A stretch of DNA of 64,000 bases from Escherichia coli (GTDB lineage Bacteria; Pseudomonadota; Gammaproteobacteria; Enterobacterales; Enterobacteriaceae), in assembly GCF_041248615.1 (NCBI RefSeq), contig NZ_CP158426.1; one strand, given 5' to 3'. Under the pieces are notes generated by a model, which made no database searches, had not been told where the DNA came from, and saw only the letters and a list, made by a program, of their open reading frames with translations. Positions 16,980-25,747 of this stretch are shown here, piece by piece (within the stretch, counting starts at the first letter, position 1; the number at the start of each line of letters is the position of its first letter). The position numbers and the translations under genes were made by a program.

Positions 16980-19490
16980 ATGAGCCATCACCACACGCAC
17001 CTGGCGTACCCGTGGAACGCCCCGCTGCCGGTTATTGATCCTGAGACATTCGGCAGAGCATTACCGCAGAAGCCAACCGCATTACAACGGGCAATCCGTG
17101 ACTACCTCACCGAAGACATTCGCACTGAGGCCCGGCTGGATGAAGAAACCGTGGCCTTCCTGACAACCACGGACAAAGGTAAGCAAATTAATTCACACCT
17201 TCACCGGGACGAAGAGCGGCAGATAAGGCTGGATAAGCTGGCACGACACAGACGCGAAAATCCGCCAACGGCGGTATCGGAGGCGATAGCCGAACTTCGC
17301 ACCCTGCCCTCGTTTCTTGCCAGTGTGTTGATCCGTGATCTGGCACGACTGAACCGGAAACAGCAAAGTGCCCGCAGTGAAGGTGTAAAAAACAACAGCG
17401 CATACGTGGCCGATAATTTCGTTCGCCGTGGACTGCGTGCGCGCCTGAAACGTATTGAAAGGGTTAACGACCGCTTTGCAACGCCGGCATTCAAAACCAC
17501 CGTCGTGCGCCATCGCCTTGAAGAACTGCTCACACTGCCGCAACTCACCCGTGACGAAATCCAGCGCATCGCCACACTGACAGCCCAGGCATTCGCCGCA
17601 GAATTTGAACGCATATGTGATGAAGTTCTTGAACGGACAGGCAAGGATAATGACAGCCCGGTTATCTGGCTGCTGGCCTACCAGAAGGTGGCACGCACAG
17701 CCTTAATTCTGGGCATGGTCCCGCCATACTGGCCGGAACTCGAAATCAGGCACAACCGACGCACACCGCCGGACCCTGAACGGGTTCCGGGTGCGGTACT
17801 GCGCATCACCTGCGCGACCTGGTGGAACAACCAGTTACGCCACGTCGCCGATCTCTGGCGGGAGGAGTTACTGCGCGCCGCCGGCAGAGTGTCACGTAAA
17901 CAATCCCCCTATATCAGCCATGAGTCACTACTGGAGTTCCGCGAGAAGCGCCAGCGCACCTGTGACTTTCTCAAAAGCTGGGATATTGAAAACGAAGACG
18001 GCGAGCGCCTGAGTCTGGAGGACGTGTACTGGGCTGGCCTGGGTAATCCACGCAACCGCCGCAATGAAATGATGGTCTGCGTCAGAGGGATGGAGATGGT
18101 GGCCGAATTACGGGCTGACGTCGCATTCTTCATCACAGTAACCACCCCTTCCCGCTTTCACAGCGTGAACGAGAACGGCAGCCTGAACCCGAAATACAAC
18201 GGTGCCACAGTACGAGATGCCAGTGATTATCTGGTTTACGACTTCTTCGCAGCCGTAAGAAAAAAAATAAAAAAAGAGGGGCTGGGCTGGTACGGCGTGC
18301 GAACCGCTGAGCCACACCATGACGGCACGCCACACTGGCATATGCTGGTATTCACTTCCCCGGAGAACGCAGAGCGCATCATCGAAATTATGCGCGAAGC
18401 AGCAATTAAATCAGATCGCCACGAACTGGGGGACGATATTTCACCGCGCTTTAAATGCGAGAAGATAGACCCGGAAAAAGGCACACCGGCAAGCTATATC
18501 GCAACCTATATCGGTAAGAACCTGGACGCCAGCGCTTTCCACAACAATGATCCGAAAACCGGAAAACCTTACGTTGATGAGGAATCCGGGAAAACCATGG
18601 CGGAAACCGTGGAGAACGCCATTGCCTGGGCAAGCCTTCACCGCATCCGTCAGTTCCAGTTTTTCGGCATTCCGCCCCGCCAGGTATGGCGTGAACTCCG
18701 CCGCCTTGCAAGCCAGATGGAGCGCAACCCGGCATCACCGAAGCACCTCGATCATGACGATATTGACGCCATTATGGCTGCCGCAGATGTGGGATGTTTT
18801 GCCACCTACATCATGAAACAGGGTGGTGTGCTCATTCCGCGCAACCAGTATCTGGTCCGCACCGCATACGAAACCGCAGACGAAGCCAACGACTACGGTG
18901 AATTCCCTCAACGTATCTACGGAATCTGCGCCCCGTCGCTCGGAGAGCGGTACACCATATGCACCCATCCGGACGAGTGGAAACTGGTTAAAAAAGAAAC
19001 AACACCAGACAACCGCACGGGCGAGGGTTTTGACCTTCATGGCGACCCCGTCGCCCCTTGGACTCGTGGCAATAACTGTCCCCGGGATGAAAAAACAGAC
19101 AATCACGGACCAGAAAACAGGCAGGACCCCGGACGACTGACGCTTCCCGAAGAGAACCTGGAAAGCTGGCTGAATACGTTAAGCAGGGGCGATCGGAGAA
19201 AACTGCGTAATCAGATTAAAAATCAGCCGTCGGGCGCAAAAACCGGACAAAACGACACCACACCGGCATCTGACACCCCTGTAAGGGTGGGGATTGTCGT
19301 GCCTGCGGATACCGCGACGGACACGCAAATCGCCCGCGAACTTGATGCGCTGGGTGTGCAGTTGCCTGACGCGGCCATCATCTCCGTGCGTAACGGTGCC
19401 CGTGTGCGTCTGGATAACGGGGGAACAGCGTACTGGGATGAGTCAGCCCGTCACATCATCACAGAGCAGCCAGTGGAGGCGGGAGCATGA
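16980..19490 (+). CDS. rolling-circle replication initiator (P2 gpA-like)
   Basis: 836 aa; HUH-type motif HHDGTPHWHMLVF; size and position match P2 gene A. Confidence 0.9.
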   Translation: MSHHHTHLAYPWNAPLPVIDPETFGRALPQKPTALQRAIRDYLTEDIRTEARLDEETVAFLTTTDKGKQINSHLHRDEERQIRLDKLARHRRENPPTAVSEAIAELRTLPSFLASVLIRDLARLNRKQQSARSEGVKNNSAYVADNFVRRGLRARLKRIERVNDRFATPAFKTTVVRHRLEELLTLPQLTRDEIQRIATLTAQAFAAEFERICDEVLERTGKDNDSPVIWLLAYQKVARTALILGMVPPYWPELEIRHNRRTPPDPERVPGAVLRITCATWWNNQLRHVADLWREELLRAAGRVSRKQSPYISHESLLEFREKRQRTCDFLKSWDIENEDGERLSLEDVYWAGLGNPRNRRNEMMVCVRGMEMVAELRADVAFFITVTTPSRFHSVNENGSLNPKYNGATVRDASDYLVYDFFAAVRKKIKKEGLGWYGVRTAEPHHDGTPHWHMLVFTSPENAERIIEIMREAAIKSDRHELGDDISPRFKCEKIDPEKGTPASYIATYIGKNLDASAFHNNDPKTGKPYVDEESGKTMAETVENAIAWASLHRIRQFQFFGIPPRQVWRELRRLASQMERNPASPKHLDHDDIDAIMAAADVGCFATYIMKQGGVLIPRNQYLVRTAYETADEANDYGEFPQRIYGICAPSLGERYTICTHPDEWKLVKKETTPDNRTGEGFDLHGDPVAPWTRGNNCPRDEKTDNHGPENRQDPGRLTLPEENLESWLNTLSRGDRRKLRNQIKNQPSGAKTGQNDTTPASDTPVRVGIVVPADTATDTQIARELDALGVQLPDAAIISVRNGARVRLDNGGTAYWDESARHIITEQPVEAGA

Positions 19491-19918
19491 CGCGATTTTG
19501 CTGCACCATGCAGCGCCCACAGTTTGAGGCCATCATGCGCCAGCGTATGCCGGTGCTGACACTGTTCAGGCCTGCCACAAGGCCACAACCGGGCGACGAG
19601 CTGGAAATCACGATAGTCAGCCCCGATCGCACCACGGAGACCACCATCGCCGACATACTCAACAGGCGGCCGGGCAGCGAGAGCCATAGCTGGACTGTCG
19701 TCATTCGTCCGCGCCGTTCGCCGGAGGAACCGGAGCCGTGCACGCCTGCCGGGAAAATCATGCAGAGATATCACGAAGAGCGGACACGCAGGCACAACGG
19801 CGGACTGGCCAGAACACTGAACACAGTCAATCACAAGGCCGCGCTGGCGCGAATGGTCTTTTCACCACAACGCAATTCATTCGCCAGACCAGCACAGAAC
19901 GGGAGGAAACAACAGTGA
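19487..19918 (+). CDS. hypothetical protein (P2 orf91 position)
   Basis: 143 aa; ATG overlaps gpA stop (ATGA); SD GGAGG. Confidence 0.5.
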   Translation: MTRFCCTMQRPQFEAIMRQRMPVLTLFRPATRPQPGDELEITIVSPDRTTETTIADILNRRPGSESHSWTVVIRPRRSPEEPEPCTPAGKIMQRYHEERTRRHNGGLARTLNTVNHKAALARMVFSPQRNSFARPAQNGRKQQ

Positions 19919-20109
19919 GCAGAATATTACTTTTTCTGCTGTTTTTCGCGCCATTCGCACAATCAGCCACGCCGAACTGCGTAGCGAAAAAGAGCAACAC
20001 CGTTGTCATTGTCCAGTGTGATGACGGCACGGTAACAATCACCGACTCGAGCAAAGGAAGCGTCATTGTCTGCCGTAAAGAGAAACCCTGTCAGCGAACC
20101 GAACTTTGA
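19915..20109 (+). CDS. small secreted Cys-containing protein (signal peptide)
   Basis: GTG start overlapping upstream stop (GTGA), SD GGAGG; 64 aa, MSRILLFLLFFAPFAQS signal then 4 Cys. Confidence 0.5.
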   Translation: MSRILLFLLFFAPFAQSATPNCVAKKSNTVVIVQCDDGTVTITDSSKGSVIVCRKEKPCQRTEL

Positions 20110-20120
20110 AGGAAAAATAT

Positions 20121-20435
20121 ATGAACAGGAAACAGAAGCAGGAACTGAAAGGCTTCTTACGTAAAGAAATTGCCAGGCTGGAAGATGTGGAATCTCAGTC
20201 ATCAGATATTCCATTCGGAATGGATATCAACGACGCCTGTATGCTCCAGGTATACCGCATAGCTCAGGCTGCACTACAGGCAAAACCGTCAGATGGACTG
20301 GTTAGAGCAGTACGTTTCTATGAACTGGTAAAGCGTGAGAATCCGCCAGTCGAAACCGGAGCATGGCAAGACGCTGTTGACTGGGTGCTCAAAGAGGCTT
20401 GTCAGGTTGTAAACACTGGCATCAAAGGAGACTGA
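20121..20435 (+). CDS. hypothetical protein, cargo operon gene 1
   Basis: 104 aa from ATG with SD AAGGA (track uses upstream TTG at 20106). Confidence 0.55.
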   Translation: MNRKQKQELKGFLRKEIARLEDVESQSSDIPFGMDINDACMLQVYRIAQAALQAKPSDGLVRAVRFYELVKRENPPVETGAWQDAVDWVLKEACQVVNTGIKGD

Positions 20436-20436
20436 T

Positions 20437-20646
20437 ATGGCTATTGCCGCAAGTTACACCATGCATCTCTATTGTGATTGTCGCCAGTGTACAAATGGTA
20501 AATATCAAACGCCAGACTTCGGTGAATATATCGGTACGTCATGGACTGGCTGTGCAAAAGAGGCGCGTAAGGATGGCTGGCGAATAAGCAAAGACAAAAC
20601 TCGTGCTTTTGCGCCCGGGCATAAAGTTTTGAGGATTAACAAATGA
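20437..20646 (+). CDS. small Cys-rich protein, cargo operon gene 2
   Basis: 69 aa; SD AAGGAG; CDCRQC plus later Cys; 1-nt gap to gene 1. Confidence 0.55.
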   Translation: MAIAASYTMHLYCDCRQCTNGKYQTPDFGEYIGTSWTGCAKEARKDGWRISKDKTRAFAPGHKVLRINK

Positions 20647-21044
20647 CCACTATAACCAAAGAGCGACTACTGACAATCAGGCAGTGGCGCGAAACATACG
20701 GACCTGGTAGCAACGTTGTACTGCCAGCCGAAGAAGCGGAAAAACTGGCACGGATTGCTTTGGCATCGCTGGAAGCAAAACCAATAGGTGCTTTCCACAT
20801 TGCAGAACAGCAGGTCGATGGCACAAGTGACTACATCAAGGATGGGGAGTACCGCTTGCTGACATCTGAAGAACAAAAGATAGCCCAACTTTTAGGCGAT
20901 GCATGGAACCTGTATTTTACATTGCCAGTTGAGCATCCAATGGGTAGAGATGAATTTTGCCGGGCAATTCATCATTGCCAAAATATGGTGTTGGCACGCC
21001 CTGCCATCAGGGCGCTGGCCAGTAAGGGGCAAGGCTATAAATAG
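20643..21044 (+). CDS. hypothetical protein, cargo operon gene 3
   Basis: 133 aa; ATGA overlap with gene 2; followed by intrinsic terminator. Confidence 0.6.
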   Translation: MTTITKERLLTIRQWRETYGPGSNVVLPAEEAEKLARIALASLEAKPIGAFHIAEQQVDGTSDYIKDGEYRLLTSEEQKIAQLLGDAWNLYFTLPVEHPMGRDEFCRAIHHCQNMVLARPAIRALASKGQGYK

Positions 21045-21050
21045 ATGAGC

Positions 21051-21078
21051 AAAACGCCCTCCTCCAGGGCGTTTATTT
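21051..21078 (+). terminator. intrinsic terminator ending the 3-gene cargo operon
   Basis: stem AACGCCCT/AGGGCGTT, loop CCTCC, then T-rich tract. Confidence 0.5.
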
Positions 21079-21081
21079 CAA

Positions 21082-21108
21082 TGCACAATAGTGCACAAAT
21101 TTGCACAA
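21082..21108. promoter_or_regulatory. three TGCACAA direct repeats at 10-bp phase
   Basis: TGCACAA at 21082, 21092, 21102, one helical turn apart. Confidence 0.4.
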
Positions 21109-21534
21109 TTTTTTTGAACGACTTTTTGCCCTTCCGGCCCGTGTGGCGTCTGGATCCGTCGGGGATCCGTGCGTGCACGAAAAAAGGCCTTTTTCTGCGC
21201 GCAGGTGACGGGGGAACAGCCCGCGTTTCAGGGGGTAAATAGCATTCCCTGAACGATGTTGCAGCGACACAACAGAATGGCTGTATTTCTCACGCTGAGC
21301 GTAAAAAAGACGTAAAAGCTTGATTTGATGGGGGTGAAAGATAAGGCCGTCAAAATCGCACTGAGGCAGCGAGAATATGTCGTCAGAGTTGCGGGGTTGC
21401 GTAAGCATCCGCCCGGCGATGATGGCTACAAGGTTGGAGATGTTGTGAAATTATCTGAAGGAATAACCAGCTTGCAGGAGAACCCGGGCAAAGTCAGAAT
21501 AGCGGCAGGCATCAACTCAAAAGAGGATAATGTC

Positions 21535-21636
21535 ATGAGCCACTTTAATGATTTATGCCAGATCAATCGTGAAGCTGAAGAAAAACGCGCTGAGGCAGCT
21601 CAAATTTTGCGGGATGAAGCGGCAAGGCTGATTGAT
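21535..21636 (+). pseudogene. 5' part of cargo ORF interrupted by the IS21-family element
   Basis: ORF with SD AGAGGA runs into the IS left end; reading frame resumes in-frame at 24224; alternative start 21325. Confidence 0.6.
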
Positions 21637-21829
21637 TGCGTATTTTCATGAAAGGAGATCACTCAATAACTTCCATCGAGATCGGGTAATAACATTTGAA
21701 CAGATCGCTGAATAACATCGATGGAGATCACTTTTGACTCATTTTGTTATTCAGTGATCTCCATCAATGTTATTGGAACTTCACAGGTGTGTTGATCTGT
21801 ATCTTTTGCCATTCCGGTAAAGGATACCT

Positions 21830-23371
21830 ATGCCAACAGTTCCAATTTCTATGAGAAAACTTAAAGAAATTCTTAGGCTTAAATACGGTGTTGGACTCAG
21901 CCATCGACAAATTGGTCGTAGTCTTGCAATCTCCCCTTCCGTTGTATCCAGATATGCTAATCGGGCGGCTCAACTTGGCATAAAGCAGTGGCCCTTACCT
22001 ACAGGATGGGATGATACAAAACTAAAACATGCGTTCCTTCAGACCCAGGTTAAGATGAAGAAGCACTCTCTGCCTGACTGGGCTACAGTACACCGGGAAC
22101 TGCGTAATAAATGCGTGACGCTGCAGCTACTCTGGGAAGAATACTGTGAGCGTAATCCAGGCGGTTTTTACAGCTATAACCATTACTGCCGGATGTACCG
22201 TGAATGGCTCAAAACCACTTCACCATCAATGCGTCAGGTACATAAAGCTGGCGAAAAACTTTTCGTTGATTACTGTGGACCTACCGTTGGCGTTACCGAC
22301 CCTGAGACCGGAGAAATAAGAACTGCTCAGGTCATCGTAGCTGTTCTCGGGGCATCAAGTTACACATGGGCAGAGGCCACCTGGTCTCAGCAGCTTGAAG
22401 ACTGGGTGATGAGTCATGTTCGCTGCTTCCAGTGGTTGGGTGGCGTTCCTGAACTTGTTGTTCCGGACAATCTGAAAAGCGCCACATCCAGGGCATGTAA
22501 GTATGATCCTGACGTTAACCCTACCTACCAGCAGATGCTTGAGCATTATAATGTCGCAGTTTTGCCTGCGCGGCCACGTAAACCGAAAGATAAAGCCAAA
22601 GCTGAAGTTGGCGTTCAGGTTGTTGAACGCTGGATCATGGCCCGAATCAGGCATGAGATCTTCTACAGCCTTGCATCGCTTAATCAGCGCATTCGGGAGT
22701 TGCTGGAAAGACTGAATAACAAAATAATGCAGAAGTTGGGTTATTCACGTGCAGAACTCTTCATCCAGCTTGATAAACCCGCACTGAAGCCTCTTCCTGA
22801 AGCCAGTTACAGTTACACCCTGGTGAAGAAAGTCAGAGTTCATGCCGATTACCACGTGGAAATCGACAAACATTACTACTCGGTTCCATGTTCGCTGTTA
22901 GGCCAGCAACTGGAAGCATGGATCTCCGGAGAACTGGTAAGACTCTTCAATCAGGGGCAGGAGGTTGCTGTGCACCCGCGCAAGCGTACTTATGGCTACA
23001 GTACCCGCAACGAGCACATGCCTGAAGCTCATCGACAGCATGCCACCTGGACGCCAGAGCGTCTTCTGGAATGGGCGGGGCACATAGGCAGTGAAACTCA
23101 TAGTTATGTGCTTCATATACTGAACTCTCGTCCACATCCGGAACAAAGCTATCGCTTCTGCCTTGGACTCCTGAACCTTCATAAAAAATACAGTAAAGCC
23201 AGACTTAATGCAGCATGTGCAAGAGCTCTGAAAACAAAGGTATGGCGTCTGTCAGGTATTAAATCGATCCTGGAAAAAGGTCTGGATAAACAACCTGTTC
23301 AGGATCCAAAACCAGATCTGTTATCCACGATGGAACACGAAAACGTACGCGGCAGTGAGTATTACCACTGA
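21830..23371 (+). CDS. istA: IS21-family transposase IstA
   Basis: 513 aa; N-terminal HTH; DDE-type integrase core; followed by istB. Confidence 0.9.
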   Translation: MPTVPISMRKLKEILRLKYGVGLSHRQIGRSLAISPSVVSRYANRAAQLGIKQWPLPTGWDDTKLKHAFLQTQVKMKKHSLPDWATVHRELRNKCVTLQLLWEEYCERNPGGFYSYNHYCRMYREWLKTTSPSMRQVHKAGEKLFVDYCGPTVGVTDPETGEIRTAQVIVAVLGASSYTWAEATWSQQLEDWVMSHVRCFQWLGGVPELVVPDNLKSATSRACKYDPDVNPTYQQMLEHYNVAVLPARPRKPKDKAKAEVGVQVVERWIMARIRHEIFYSLASLNQRIRELLERLNNKIMQKLGYSRAELFIQLDKPALKPLPEASYSYTLVKKVRVHADYHVEIDKHYYSVPCSLLGQQLEAWISGELVRLFNQGQEVAVHPRKRTYGYSTRNEHMPEAHRQHATWTPERLLEWAGHIGSETHSYVLHILNSRPHPEQSYRFCLGLLNLHKKYSKARLNAACARALKTKVWRLSGIKSILEKGLDKQPVQDPKPDLLSTMEHENVRGSEYYH

Positions 23372-23382
23372 TACGGGATCCA

Positions 23383-24132
23383 ATGATGAATCATCTTTAC
23401 GAACAACTGACCGCACTTAAACTCACCGGCTTCCGTGATGCGCTTAAAAAGCAACTTGCTCAGCCGGGCACATACCAGGAGCTGGGCTTCGAAGAACGCC
23501 TGTCATTACTGACAGCAGAAGAACTAACCTGCCGTGAAAACAGGAAGGCAGAGCGTCTGATCAAACATGCACGGTTCAGACTTAATGCTGAGTTATCAAA
23601 GCTGGATTATCGTAACAATAGAGGGCTGGACAGGGCCCTCATCCGTTCACTCAGTCAGGGAAACTGGTTAACCCTGAAACAAAATATTTTACTGACCGGG
23701 GCCACCGGCAGCGGTAAAACGTTCCTGGCATGTGCACTTGGTCATAATGCCTGCCGACAGGGATACAAGGTCTACTATTATCGCCTTAAAGCGCTGATGG
23801 AACAGTGCTATCAGGGGCATGCTGATGGAAGATACAGCAAACTTTTGACCAGGCTGAATAATAGCGATCTGCTGCTTCTGGATGACTGGGGGCTGGAACC
23901 TCTCTCATCAGAACAGCGTAGCGACCTGCTGGAAATAGTGGATCTGATGTACCAACGAGGCTCAATCATCGTAGTGAGCCAGTTGCCGGTGGAAAACTGG
24001 TACAAAATGATCGGAGACTCCACACATGCGGATGCCATCCTAGATCGACTGGTTCATGGCAGTATCAAGATCGAACTTAAAGGAGAATCAATGCGGAAAA
24101 TACAATCTCCGTTGACCGAAGGAGATCAGTGA
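23383..24132 (+). CDS. istB: IS21-family ATP-binding helper IstB
   Basis: 249 aa; Walker A GATGSGKT. Confidence 0.9.
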   Translation: MMNHLYEQLTALKLTGFRDALKKQLAQPGTYQELGFEERLSLLTAEELTCRENRKAERLIKHARFRLNAELSKLDYRNNRGLDRALIRSLSQGNWLTLKQNILLTGATGSGKTFLACALGHNACRQGYKVYYYRLKALMEQCYQGHADGRYSKLLTRLNNSDLLLLDDWGLEPLSSEQRSDLLEIVDLMYQRGSIIVVSQLPVENWYKMIGDSTHADAILDRLVHGSIKIELKGESMRKIQSPLTEGDQ

Positions 24133-24223
24133 AGGTAATTTAAAAACGGTTCTGTGAAAGTGACACGAACCGATCTCCATCGATGTTACTCACCGATCTC
24201 CTTCACGGTAATACGCAATTGAT

Positions 24224-24625
24224 TTCTATGAAGAATGGCTGGGGCTTCCATCCATGTACTGGGAAGACGATGATGGCGACCTGCACCGCTACGTGGAGAC
24301 AGGCTTGCCATGTAAGACAGCGGCGGATTTTAGTCCTCTTTCAGTCCACAATATCGCATCTGCACCAGACAATATTTTCCGCATGGCCGTGCGAACCTGG
24401 GTTAAGTCATCTGACAGCAGCTACCCGGTAAGCGTGGTTATTGCACTTGAATTATATTCAGTAGATGCGGAACGGGTGTCTCTGAGAGTCCGGGTGGAAG
24501 ACGATATTTCTGTTCGCGTATTTATCAATAAACCCAGCGAAGAAGCCTGGGGCGATGTTGTTATGCACATGAAAAAGCACATCGCTAATCACCTGAAAAA
24601 GCGAGCGCCATCAGCACTTCGTTAA
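24224..24625 (+). pseudogene. 3' part of cargo ORF interrupted by the IS21-family element
   Basis: in-frame continuation of 21535-21636 once IS and one ATTGAT copy are removed; ends 66 bp before gpQ stop. Confidence 0.6.
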
Positions 24626-24691
24626 GCAGAGCTGGAGAGTCGGGGCATAAATTTTTTATGCCCCGGCGAAGCAGCAGACAAGCGAAGCGCG

Positions 24692-25747
24692 TCAGGATAT
24701 GGGCTGGGTGTCTAACAGTGCGTAAGGGTTAAAACGGATCACCTCTTCGCCCAGCCAGTCGTTGACGTGTTTCATTGCTTCCATGACGGGCATCAGTTCG
24801 TTAATGGCAAACACACGGGCTGCCTTCTCCACATCCCCGAATGACCCCTTCTCACCCGGCATGGCCCCCATCAGCTGCGGCGGTACACGGTGCACGGACA
24901 GCACATCATCACGCGATGCAGCCTTGACGTTCATGAACTCATCCTTTGCGGTGATTTGCTGAAACGGCAAAATCTGTACGCCATCCTTACCACCTCCCGC
25001 CGCGTGGATGAGCAGATTTTTAAACGCCCCGCCACCACGCGCGCTTTGCAGTGTTTCCCGCAGTTTTTCCATGCTTTCACGGTCAACCTGCGCCGCACCG
25101 ATGTAGACAATACAGCCCGCGTGTGAGCCGTTATCGTAGTAGAGCTTGCGGAAGATATCGGCGGAATGTGACAGGCTGGCAGACAGCAGGCCGCCCAGGT
25201 AATCCGGCATCCCGTAAATCTCCTGGTTGATATCAGGATTCATCAGGTGGCATATCGTCCCCTCACGAAAGCGGTACTCTTCCTGTCCTTCCTGTATATA
25301 CCACCATGATTTCATATCGCTGCCACGTCGCATGTATTTCGCCAGCGCCCGGCGCAGGGCCAGCGGTTCGCCAAGCATGTTGCGCCGCAGCTCAAGACAG
25401 GCATTACCGAACACAAACCAGTCCATCGCCACCCCGGCGAACTCCTGGCGGGACAGCAGAGGATGTGGAATATAGCAGCCCAGCAGCACATTACGTTTGA
25501 AGCTGAGCGCCGACTGGTGCCAGGACGTCTGGCGGGCAGCCCGTGCCAGTCCGTACCAGTCAACGGGCGTTTCAAACCACCGCCCGTTGTCGGCGCAGTA
25601 CATGCTGTCCAGCAGGTCGGCCCCTGACAGCCGGTAAGGTCCTTCAAACGTGAAGGCACTCAGTGTCGGGTCGCTTCGCAGGGAATCCGCAAGGCTGCCC
25701 TGCGCTGCGCGGGCGTTCGTACGTCGTTGTTTATTTTTTCTGCTCAT
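24692..25747 (-). CDS. portal protein (P2 gpQ-like)
   Basis: 351 aa; start overlaps terminase stop; position next to gpP. Confidence 0.85.
   Translation of the reverse strand: MSRKNKQRRTNARAAQGSLADSLRSDPTLSAFTFEGPYRLSGADLLDSMYCADNGRWFETPVDWYGLARAARQTSWHQSALSFKRNVLLGCYIPHPLLSRQEFAGVAMDWFVFGNACLELRRNMLGEPLALRRALAKYMRRGSDMKSWWYIQEGQEEYRFREGTICHLMNPDINQEIYGMPDYLGGLLSASLSHSADIFRKLYYDNGSHAGCIVYIGAAQVDRESMEKLRETLQSARGGGAFKNLLIHAAGGGKDGVQILPFQQITAKDEFMNVKAASRDDVLSVHRVPPQLMGAMPGEKGSFGDVEKAARVFAINELMPVMEAMKHVNDWLGEEVIRFNPYALLDTQPIS

Follow-up and report, generated by a model that had tools for sequence, protein, structure and literature searches.

The interval between the replication gene gpA and the portal gene gpQ of P2-family phages, next to cos, has been described as a hotspot (PMC9122126). 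Three of eight additional cloned systems, plus old-tin, showed defence (PMC9122126), and a 2026 preprint predicts an antiviral function for 15–32% of the unknown P2 hotspot proteins. In P2 itself, tin and old (the TO region) are accessory cargo of this variable, cos-adjacent A-to-Q interval and are located between A and cos, reading leftward. In Pseudomonas phage phiCTX, a single lysogenic-conversion gene, ctx, is located at the far left end of a P2-like genome, between cosL and the portal gene, which would be the same slot as that of the cassette described below. The product of ctx, a pore-forming toxin, is unrelated to the small cytoplasmic alpha/beta protein predicted here. Insertion sequences of the IS21 family, in turn, generate target-site duplications of 4–8 bp. 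One member, ISEc12, is known from an insertion that interrupts tssM in E. coli ST131 clade C and is flanked by a 5-bp target duplication (PMC10711316).

Here, the term “window” denotes the whole 64,000-nucleotide stretch of E. coli DNA that was analysed. It contains the gpA–gpQ interval of a P88-like prophage (Xuanwuvirus, P2 family) of strain NRZ14408 (Table 1), and an active ISEc12 copy has very probably moved into a small accessory gene of this prophage. The event resembles the tssM case in that the same element cleanly splits a coding gene and leaves a short duplication. However, the duplication is 6 bp long here, the interrupted gene belongs to the accessory cargo of a prophage, and the event is confined to one sequenced strain and not fixed in a lineage.

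Table 1. Features of the gpA–gpQ interval, with positions counted from the first nucleotide of the window.
Feature	Position	Strand	Remark or basis
gpA replication endonuclease, 836 aa; left hotspot border	16980..19490	+	ORF; RefSeq “replication endonuclease”
Five small cargo ORFs, gpA side of cos	19487..21044	+	PADLOC and PHROG searches
Three TGCACAA direct repeats beside cos	21085..21115	+	cos-region alignment
Predicted cos 19-mer GGTGACGGGGGAACAGCCC	21204..21222	+	By homology (alignment)
Left part of 584-bp cassette (5' UTR and codons 1–34)	21459..21636	+	Comparison with P88 and P884B11
Putative cassette promoter TTGCAG, 17-nt spacer, CAGAAT	21472..21500	+	Weak; conserved hexamers
5' fragment of split gene, codons 1–34 (MSHFNDLC...ARLID)	21535..21636	+	Start set by phrog_5091, homologues and upstream stops
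ATTGAT, left target-site duplication copy	21631..21636		Single copy in empty sites
ISEc12 (IS21 family)	21637..24217	+	2,581 bp, intact, TG...CA termini
istA transposase, 513 aa	21830..23371	+	NF033546; RefSeq WP_001298859.1
istB AAA+ helper ATPase, 249 aa	23383..24132	+	NF038214; RefSeq WP_001016257.1
ATTGAT, right target-site duplication copy	24218..24223		Read from sequence
3' fragment of split gene, codons 35–167 and stop	24224..24625	+	ORF list; junction reconstruction
GC-rich hairpin CGGGGCATAAA-TTT-TTTATGCCCCG, between cargo gene and Q	24641..24665		Read from sequence
Portal gene Q; right hotspot border	24692..25747	-	ORF; RefSeq “phage portal protein”

The ISEc12 insertion and its target site

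The element also carries the ISEc12 label in the RefSeq annotation and shows 0–2 nt mismatches over 2,581 bp to six other RefSeq-annotated copies, with which it shares its exact length and termini. It starts with TGCGTATT and ends with AATACGCA. The terminal repeats of the IS21 family are represented by two arms (21652–21704 and 24151–24203) that are 72% complementary, and a second pair of arms (21702–21729 and 24172–24199) is 93% complementary; the direct-repeat families D1 and D2 are found at the ends of the element, with repeated motifs inside both termini. The gene order is that of the IS21 family, i.e., istA, coding for a transposase with HTH and DDE domains, is followed by istB, coding for the AAA+ helper ATPase. 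Their products score 310.5 bits against NF033546 (IS21-family transposase; cut-off 160) and 270 bits against NF038214 (cut-off 200), respectively. The RefSeq start of istB is placed one codon later than the start of the ORF.

An earlier note on this DNA had described an IS21-family element flanked by a 6-bp ATTGAT duplication, and every coordinate of this description holds: ATTGAT is present in two copies here and in one copy in empty sites. The six other ISEc12 copies are flanked by duplications of 5 bp (n = 4) or 7 bp (n = 2). With the present copy, the seven thus exhibit 5, 6 and 7 bp, and the duplication found here falls within the range of the element. A T follows both ATTGAT copies, and a duplication of 7 bp is formally possible. 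This alternative was rejected, as it would break the TG...CA ends common to all seven copies; the duplication is therefore set at 6 bp.

A search of 5,426 complete E. coli genomes identified the empty site, i.e., the junction exactly as reconstructed, with ATTGAT present once (775 bp), in 27 genomes, with an identity of 100% in the 19 best listed of these matches. The IS-filled junction was found in a single genome of the 5,426 (NZ_LT599825.1, strain NRZ14408), and the 584-bp cassette that surrounds it in 28. The insertion is a recent, strain-specific event. Removal of the element and of one ATTGAT copy joins the two flanking reading frames, as the earlier note had proposed, into an unbroken ORF of 167 codons, and the search for uninterrupted alleles in related prophages revealed this junction as part of a continuous ORF in the 27 genomes.

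In the proposed course of events, the IstA DDE transposase and the IstB AAA+ helper would have directed the entry of ISEc12 between codons 34 and 35 of the 167-codon gene, and filling-in of the staggered target cut would have created the ATTGAT duplication. The 5' fragment now reads into the element and reaches a stop after CVFS at 21651; its product would consist of the first 34 residues and these four IS-derived ones. The remaining 133 codons would have lost their start codon and promoter. Judging from the interrupted frame, the split gene is almost certainly dead.

Extent of the interrupted gene and its position next to the predicted cos

RefSeq annotates the two sides of the insertion as separate hypothetical proteins, WP_202888960.1 (21328–21651) on the 5' side and the 123-aa WP_223715959.1, which begins at an internal ATG of the 3' fragment (24254–24625), and it gives the intact allele a length of 236 aa. 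As the frame is open from 21325, these annotations would be in line with two independent genes or with a real gene of 236–238 aa that starts at 21325 or 21328, and a protein of ~238 aa had been offered as an alternative in the earlier note. This reading is highly improbable and is already refuted by the continuous alleles in 27 genomes, by the profile phrog_5091 and the homologues, which cross the junction and all begin with MSHF, and by in-frame stops 2–13 codons 5' of the ATG in four other alleles (ED1a-type E. coli, Klebsiella, Serratia, and Yersinia). The match to phrog_5091 (E 3.1e-52) pairs residues 1–166 with profile positions 2–163 of 164, and homologues in Salmonella, Edwardsiella, Klebsiella, Serratia, and E. 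coli have lengths of 164–169 aa. In addition, the sequence 5' of 21459 belongs to the P88 backbone, in which a 1-nt indel at a G-run separates P88 from the window and consequently shifts the reading frame of this upstream stretch, and a good ribosome-binding site, AAGAGGA, is located 7 nt ahead of the ATG at 21535. On these alignments, the true gene comprises 167 aa with its ATG at 21535, and the 236–238-aa form is an artefact of the open upstream frame. In the RefSeq records, two “hypothetical proteins” thus stand in place of one pseudogene, and the intact allele is given a start that yields 236 aa instead of 167 aa. In principle, read-out transcription could still allow a 123-aa C-terminal product to be made from the ATG at 24254.

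The related phages P88 and P884B11 are collinear with the window up to 21458 and resume at ~24630, so that exactly 21459–24629 is absent from them. The 584-bp cassette defined in this way holds the split gene as its sole gene. Some related phages have it and others, although otherwise collinear, lack it, which is the layout of a “moron.” The moron would lie between the predicted cos and the 3' end of Q, with an apparent weak promoter of its own, and would end at a hairpin terminator of the backbone. The putative promoter agrees with the consensus at 7 of 12 positions, and a consensus scan made no call there; the ED1a-type allele, which is 54% identical and has a diverged spacer, retains the two hexamers at the same distance. 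The hairpin belongs to the phage backbone, being 97–98% conserved in P88 and P884B11, and the P2 terminator tQ is found at the equivalent place. It is likely to act as a two-way terminator.

Searching directly for the 19-mer of P2 cos gave no match even with three mismatches allowed, and cos was therefore placed by alignment of the whole region. The predicted 19-mer agrees with P2 cosL, GGCGAGGCGGGGAAAGCAC, at 13 of 19 positions and is identical in the induced phage P88, and the sequence GCGCGCAG just 5' of it is kept in all non-P2 lineages. P884B11 carries a 5-nt deletion adjoining the motif. As a positive control, an exact 186-type cos was recovered at the expected place in L023. The TGCACAA repeats beside the predicted cos are kept in P88 and in ED1a-type and Klebsiella P2-like prophages, and they may possibly serve as terminase recognition sites.

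The split gene is situated in the variable gpA–gpQ interval adjoining cos, and its location between these two genes, as given in the earlier note, corresponds to the published P2 hotspot (PMC9122126). The further claim that it occupies the position of tin and old could not be upheld. Alignment to P2 cos puts the gene, which reads toward Q, into the stretch from cos to the 3' end of Q, for which P2 has only 167 bp, whereas tin and old are located on the gpA side. The gpA–gpQ “hotspot” would accordingly be divided by cos into two distinct cargo slots. The gpA-side slot holds five small cargo ORFs, for which PADLOC returned no significant match and no recognised defence gene, and whose PHROG matches are nearly all of “unknown function.” In Table S5A of Rousset 2022, this type of locus appears as six “hypothetical” proteins, and no record of its having been assayed for defence was found in the hotspot literature (PMC9122126, Table S5A). 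An Rfam scan of 19000–25500 yielded no match, and no exact attachment-site repeats of at least 15 bp were found in a brief scan of the prophage flanks.

Protein family, predicted fold and possible function

The earlier note had also suggested a database search with the reconstructed protein, which gave a divided result: the protein matches phrog_5091 from end to end, but Pfam, NCBIfam, and PADLOC returned nothing for the 167-aa form, the 236-aa form or 33 family members. A profile search of the PDB by sequence gave nothing below E 0.24, the gene had no tblastn match among 50,697 records of isolated phages, and a literature search by protein accession and PHROG identifier found no paper. Two large proteins returned by the family search (P0019 and P0021) are repeat proteins and were discarded as false positives.

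Homologues of 31–100% identity occupy the same cos-to-Q slot in P2-like prophages of E. coli and Klebsiella and in IMG/VR contigs, the latter scanned with an alignment of the closer family members, and the homologues in Serratia and Yersinia are likewise located just upstream of the portal region. Together with phrog_5091, the protein belongs to a wider family of uncharacterised prophage proteins of ~160 aa from Gammaproteobacteria, with 31 representatives at the 50% identity level. Unlike the split gene, however, the more distant members of the family are found elsewhere in variable slots, namely in the interval from the lysis genes to gpR (a Salmonella P2-like phage), in that from the lysis cassette to terminase (a lambdoid phage) or downstream of the antiterminator Q. 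Given these late and lysis regions, neither the slot nor the timing of expression is uniform across the family. All members carry the motif Y-x2-[SW]-L-x-LP-x3-W-x-D-x2-G-x4-YV-x2-G, and only L40, W47, Y57, and G61 are invariant across 33 of them.

The AlphaFold model of the 167-aa protein (pLDDT 83.6, pTM 0.78) predicts a long N-terminal helix, an antiparallel sheet and a C-terminal helix, and superposes on AlphaFold DB models from ~25 clusters of uncharacterised ~160-aa proteins. The nearest solved folds, all of them weak matches, are the FP domains of PI31 and Fbxo7, actin-capping protein, and type III secretion chaperones. The product would be a soluble, mildly acidic protein of 19 kDa (pI 5.4). 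The family alignment contains no conserved catalytic residues, and the conserved positions are structural. This suggests that the protein works through contact with a protein partner and has no enzymatic role.

Could the split gene, like tin or old, be a P2 hotspot gene that defends against or excludes phages, with NRZ14408 having lost the corresponding protection? Its place in the cos-adjacent hotspot and its self-contained moron layout, present or absent among related phages, speak for this idea, as does its divergence at a fixed locus: the 167-aa protein retains 31% identity where the adjacent portal protein retains 66–71%, a pattern that an arms race would produce. Nevertheless, none of the 5,027 PADLOC models matched at E values of up to 1, the Pfam, NCBIfam, and PDB searches by sequence were likewise without a match, and P2 Tin is dissimilar (hhalign probability 0.1%). 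Features of nucleases, NTPases, TIR, SIR2 or transmembrane effectors are absent from what is a single small protein with purely structural conservation, and cos would lie between the gene and the position of tin and old. The distant relatives embedded in lysis or late operons fit a role in the lytic cycle better than defence. We therefore regard a defence function as speculation from location, with no positive sign in the searches, and as unlikely, although far from negligible.

The gene might instead serve the lytic cycle of the phage itself or act in counter-defence, e.g., by binding a host defence protein or a component of a P4-type satellite. The small, soluble, mildly acidic and non-enzymatic character predicted for the protein would suit such a role, as would its weak structural neighbours, which are protein-binding or dimerisation modules, and the relatives beside lysis genes on the gpR side in the Salmonella P2-like phage and on the terminase side in the lambdoid phage. 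The slot moreover adjoins cos, portal and terminase, the interface exploited by P4 satellites (PMC9122126). Against this, the comparison with PADLOC, Pfam, and NCBIfam revealed no homology to a known anti-defence protein, and the gene is absent from the 50,697 isolated-phage records. The gene is also convergent with the late P/Q operon and apparently has its own (putative) promoter, an arrangement that fits expression from the prophage. A lytic-cycle or counter-defence role appears unlikely to us as well. Taking exclusion, counter-defence and anti-P4 activity together, the 167-aa family could tentatively be viewed as a single-gene factor in conflicts between phages or between phages and satellites, with a long-standing home between cos and portal in a clade of P2-like phages and a much faster evolution than that of the neighbouring portal (31% versus ~67% identity); our confidence in this view is low.

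As it stands, the insertion of ISEc12 matters little: it adds one more recent and ordinary knockout by an IS, here of a hypothetical prophage gene from a single clinical isolate. If a role in conflict were true, NRZ14408 would represent a natural knockout, for which the 27 strains with the empty site would provide near-identical intact controls. The cos-to-Q slot itself harbours a recurring, fast-evolving gene family.

ISEc12 and the gene it interrupts

The interrupting element had been assigned to the IS21 family in the earlier note, and this was borne out by profile scores for its IstA (513 aa, 310 bits against NF033546, cut-off 160) and IstB (249 aa, 270 bits against NF038214, cut-off 200) and by its RefSeq annotation as ISEc12. 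Sequence reading and a script confirmed all coordinates of the earlier note and place its start at TGCGTATT and its end at AATACGCA, with the nested imperfect repeats typical for IS21-type ends at both termini and a copy of ATTGAT at either flank (see the table). According to megablast, ISEc12 is present in 1,908 of 5,426 complete E. coli genomes at a median of three places per genome. Six other retrieved copies are each 2,581 bp long with identical termini and differ from the window copy by 0–2 nt, which upholds the proposed boundaries. Their target duplications measure 5 bp (n = 4) or 7 bp (n = 2) and a published insertion into tssM shows 5 bp (PMC10711316); the 6-bp duplication therefore lies within the range of ISEc12.

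Coordinates of the split gene and neighboring features in the window
Feature	Position (nt)	Strand	Remark
Prophage	~10.6 to 46.9 kb		extent from ORF layout
gpA	16980-19490	+	left border of hotspot
gpA-side cargo	19487-21044		five small ORFs
133-aa ORF	20643-21044		last before cos
TGCACAA direct repeats	21085-21115		three copies, 10-11 bp spacing
Predicted cos	21204-21222		GGTGACGGGGGAACAGCCC
Imperfect palindrome	21283-21311		GTATTTCTCACGC-TGA-GCGTAAAAAAGAC
WP_202888960.1	21328-21651		RefSeq hypothetical protein
Candidate promoter	21472-21500		TTGCAG, 17 nt, CAGAAT
Split gene, 5' fragment	21535-21636
Left ATTGAT copy	21631-21636
ISEc12	21637-24217		2,581 bp
Right ATTGAT copy	24218-24223
Split gene, 3' fragment	24224-24625
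WP_223715959.1	24254-24625		RefSeq hypothetical protein
Backbone hairpin	24641-24665		downstream of split gene
Portal gene Q	24692-25747	-	right border of hotspot

Removal of the element and one ATTGAT copy by script joined both fragments into an ORF of 167 codons, as had been proposed. The reconstructed empty site (775 bp, single ATTGAT), and with it the uninterrupted ORF, was found in 27 complete E. coli genomes, many of them poultry-derived, and the best 19 listed are 100% identical. The refuting conditions of the earlier note, two independent genes at this position or IS ends mapping elsewhere, were not borne out. The IS-filled left junction was present in only one of 5,426 complete genomes (NZ_LT599825.1, strain NRZ14408). 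The flanks match the empty sites exactly and the IS hardly differs from other copies, which marks the insertion as recent and strain-specific.

The 5' fragment now codes for 34 native residues followed by CVFS, while promoter, ribosome-binding site and start are all gone from the 3' fragment, in which an internal ATG at 24254 would yield a 123-aa product lacking the N-terminal helix. This arrangement makes loss of function very likely. In RefSeq, the halves are listed as two hypothetical proteins, not as a pseudogene. A distance of ~415 bp separates ISEc12 from the predicted cos; Q and its terminator are intact. Packaging need not be affected, as the prophage would measure ~36 kb with the IS included, close to the genomes of P88 (35.8 kb) and P884B11 (phage P88_4B11; 37.1 kb). 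In sum, a recent IS insertion of an ordinary kind has very probably knocked out an uncharacterised, putative prophage moron; what interest remains is modest and concerns the gene family and its conserved cos-to-portal slot rather than the insertion.

The protein family of the split gene

In database searches, the reconstructed protein matches phrog_5091 (unknown function) end to end (E 3e-52, profile positions 2–163 of 164), and sequence searches of Pfam, NCBIfam, PADLOC and PDB gave no match. Homologues in Salmonella, Edwardsiella and E. coli comprise 167–169 aa and start with MSHF. With clustering at 50%, an exhaustive profile search yielded 31 representatives, nearly all of 158–183 aa, and every named member is labelled “hypothetical.” A longer form of 236 or 238 aa, the latter suggested previously from a start at 21325, has to be rejected, since in-frame stops occur 2–13 codons upstream of the ATG in the alleles of Klebsiella, Serratia, Yersinia and ED1a-type E. 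coli (a prophage allele 54% identical), and since the upstream stretch is phage backbone shared with P88, with a frame-shifting 1-nt indel between P88 and the window. PGAP/RefSeq calls the intact allele at 236 aa (WP_223942718.1; locus L001, 6011-6721), from an upstream ATG without homologue support. The family is rare among complete E. coli genomes, with the window allele in 28 and the ED1a-type allele in 11; none of 50,697 records of isolated phages contained the gene.

The AlphaFold model is confident (pLDDT 83.6, pTM 0.78) and displays a helix (2–39), a mainly antiparallel sheet and a second helix (139–161). Structural matches in AFDB50 were limited to uncharacterised Gammaproteobacteria proteins of ~160 aa, and a BFVD search returned nothing. 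Only L40, W47, Y57 and G61 are invariant across 33 family members; these are structural rather than catalytic residues. With a pI of 5.4, the soluble protein is mildly acidic; it would act via partner binding, be it in exclusion, counter-defence or another role. The possible defence function raised in the earlier note found no evidence in the Pfam, NCBIfam and PADLOC searches, nor was any relation to Tin found. A weak candidate promoter whose position is conserved in the 54%-identical allele, together with the hairpin after the gene, suggests a putative self-contained moron.

Location relative to cos and the portal gene

The prophage belongs with the P88-like phages (Xuanwuvirus, Peduoviridae). 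Collinearity of the window with P88 and P884B11 ends at 21458 and is restored at ~24630, which defines the cargo as a 584-bp single-gene cassette. For cos placement, the P2 cos region (cosL 1–19, terminator tQ 160–181, Q stop at 187) was aligned with the window, P88, one ED1a-type E. coli prophage and one Klebsiella prophage. The P2 cohesive end matches the predicted cos at 13 of 19 positions; the site adjoins a conserved GCGCGCAG and is preceded by three TGCACAA repeats. As a positive control for this procedure, another prophage (NZ_CP049967.1) had an exact 186-type cos where it was expected. The split gene is consequently located between cos and the Q end, an interval of only 167 bp in P2, whereas tin and old of P2 lie on the opposite side of cos. 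The proposed tin/old position thus holds for cos-adjacent cargo of the gpA-gpQ hotspot but not for the side of cos. In its published definition, the hotspot simply runs from gpA to gpQ, adjacent to cos; Table S5A lists this locus type (e.g., NZ_CP033635) with six “hypothetical” proteins, and no sign of its having been tested was found there (PMC9122126).

The slot is conserved. The relatives in E. coli (54% identity) and in Klebsiella (32%) come last on the plus strand, directly before the convergent portal gene; one extra small ORF intervenes in Serratia (38%) and an ogr-like gene in Yersinia (~23%). In ten IMG/VR loci with 31–100% identical relatives, a cos-like 19-mer lies 170–330 bp upstream in nine, and the portal gene starts 35–90 bp downstream on the opposite strand in nine. 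Portal identity at these loci is 66–100%, so that at one fixed locus the protein has diverged much more than the adjacent portal. Distant relatives are located between lysis genes and gpR (Salmonella P2-like phage), between lysis cassette and terminase (lambdoid phage), or downstream of antiterminator Q (another phage). At all loci examined, the gene is single and prophage-borne.

Observations in the surrounding region

The TGCACAA repeats, ~90–120 bp gpA-side of the predicted cos, are kept in P88, ED1a-type and Klebsiella P2-like prophages, with TGCAT variants in the same place in P2, and may represent terminase recognition (cosB-like) sites. The palindrome in the backbone between cos and cassette is conserved in P88. 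Relative to P88 and the window, P88_4B11 (NC_049391.1; L004/L005) has a 5-nt deletion right after the predicted cos core, between GGTGACGGGGGGACAG and GTTTCAGG, and its linear record begins ~78 nt upstream of the motif; the record may begin at an arbitrary point, or else the cohesive end may deviate from the exact position given here.

The gpA-side cargo ORFs match PHROGs of almost only “unknown function,” and none of the five gave a significant PADLOC match; as far as current libraries can recognise one, the window hotspot carries no defence system. The 133-aa ORF, a partial pseudogene in RefSeq, has chimeric PHROG matches (residues 1–76, phrog_60, 3323 and 660; residues 72–133, phrog_13916, “DNA ligase”) and looks like a recombination scar.

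Across seven ISEc12 insertions (window 21627-21636 and loci L023-L028), with duplications of 5, 6 or 7 bp, CTGA occurs 8–10 bp upstream of the left end in five and GTGA in one more. This hints at a possible target preference, and the recurrence explains megablast alignments extending 9–17 nt into the flank. One independent copy, with a 5-bp ATTGT duplication, resides in a 186-type P2-like prophage (NZ_CP049967.1; L023, 2721-5392), 72 bp portal-side of the exact 186 cos GGCGTGGCGGGGAAAGCAT. It is the second ISEc12 insertion found in a cos-to-Q interval, which may be coincidence, as the hit list is biased toward similar flanking sequence.
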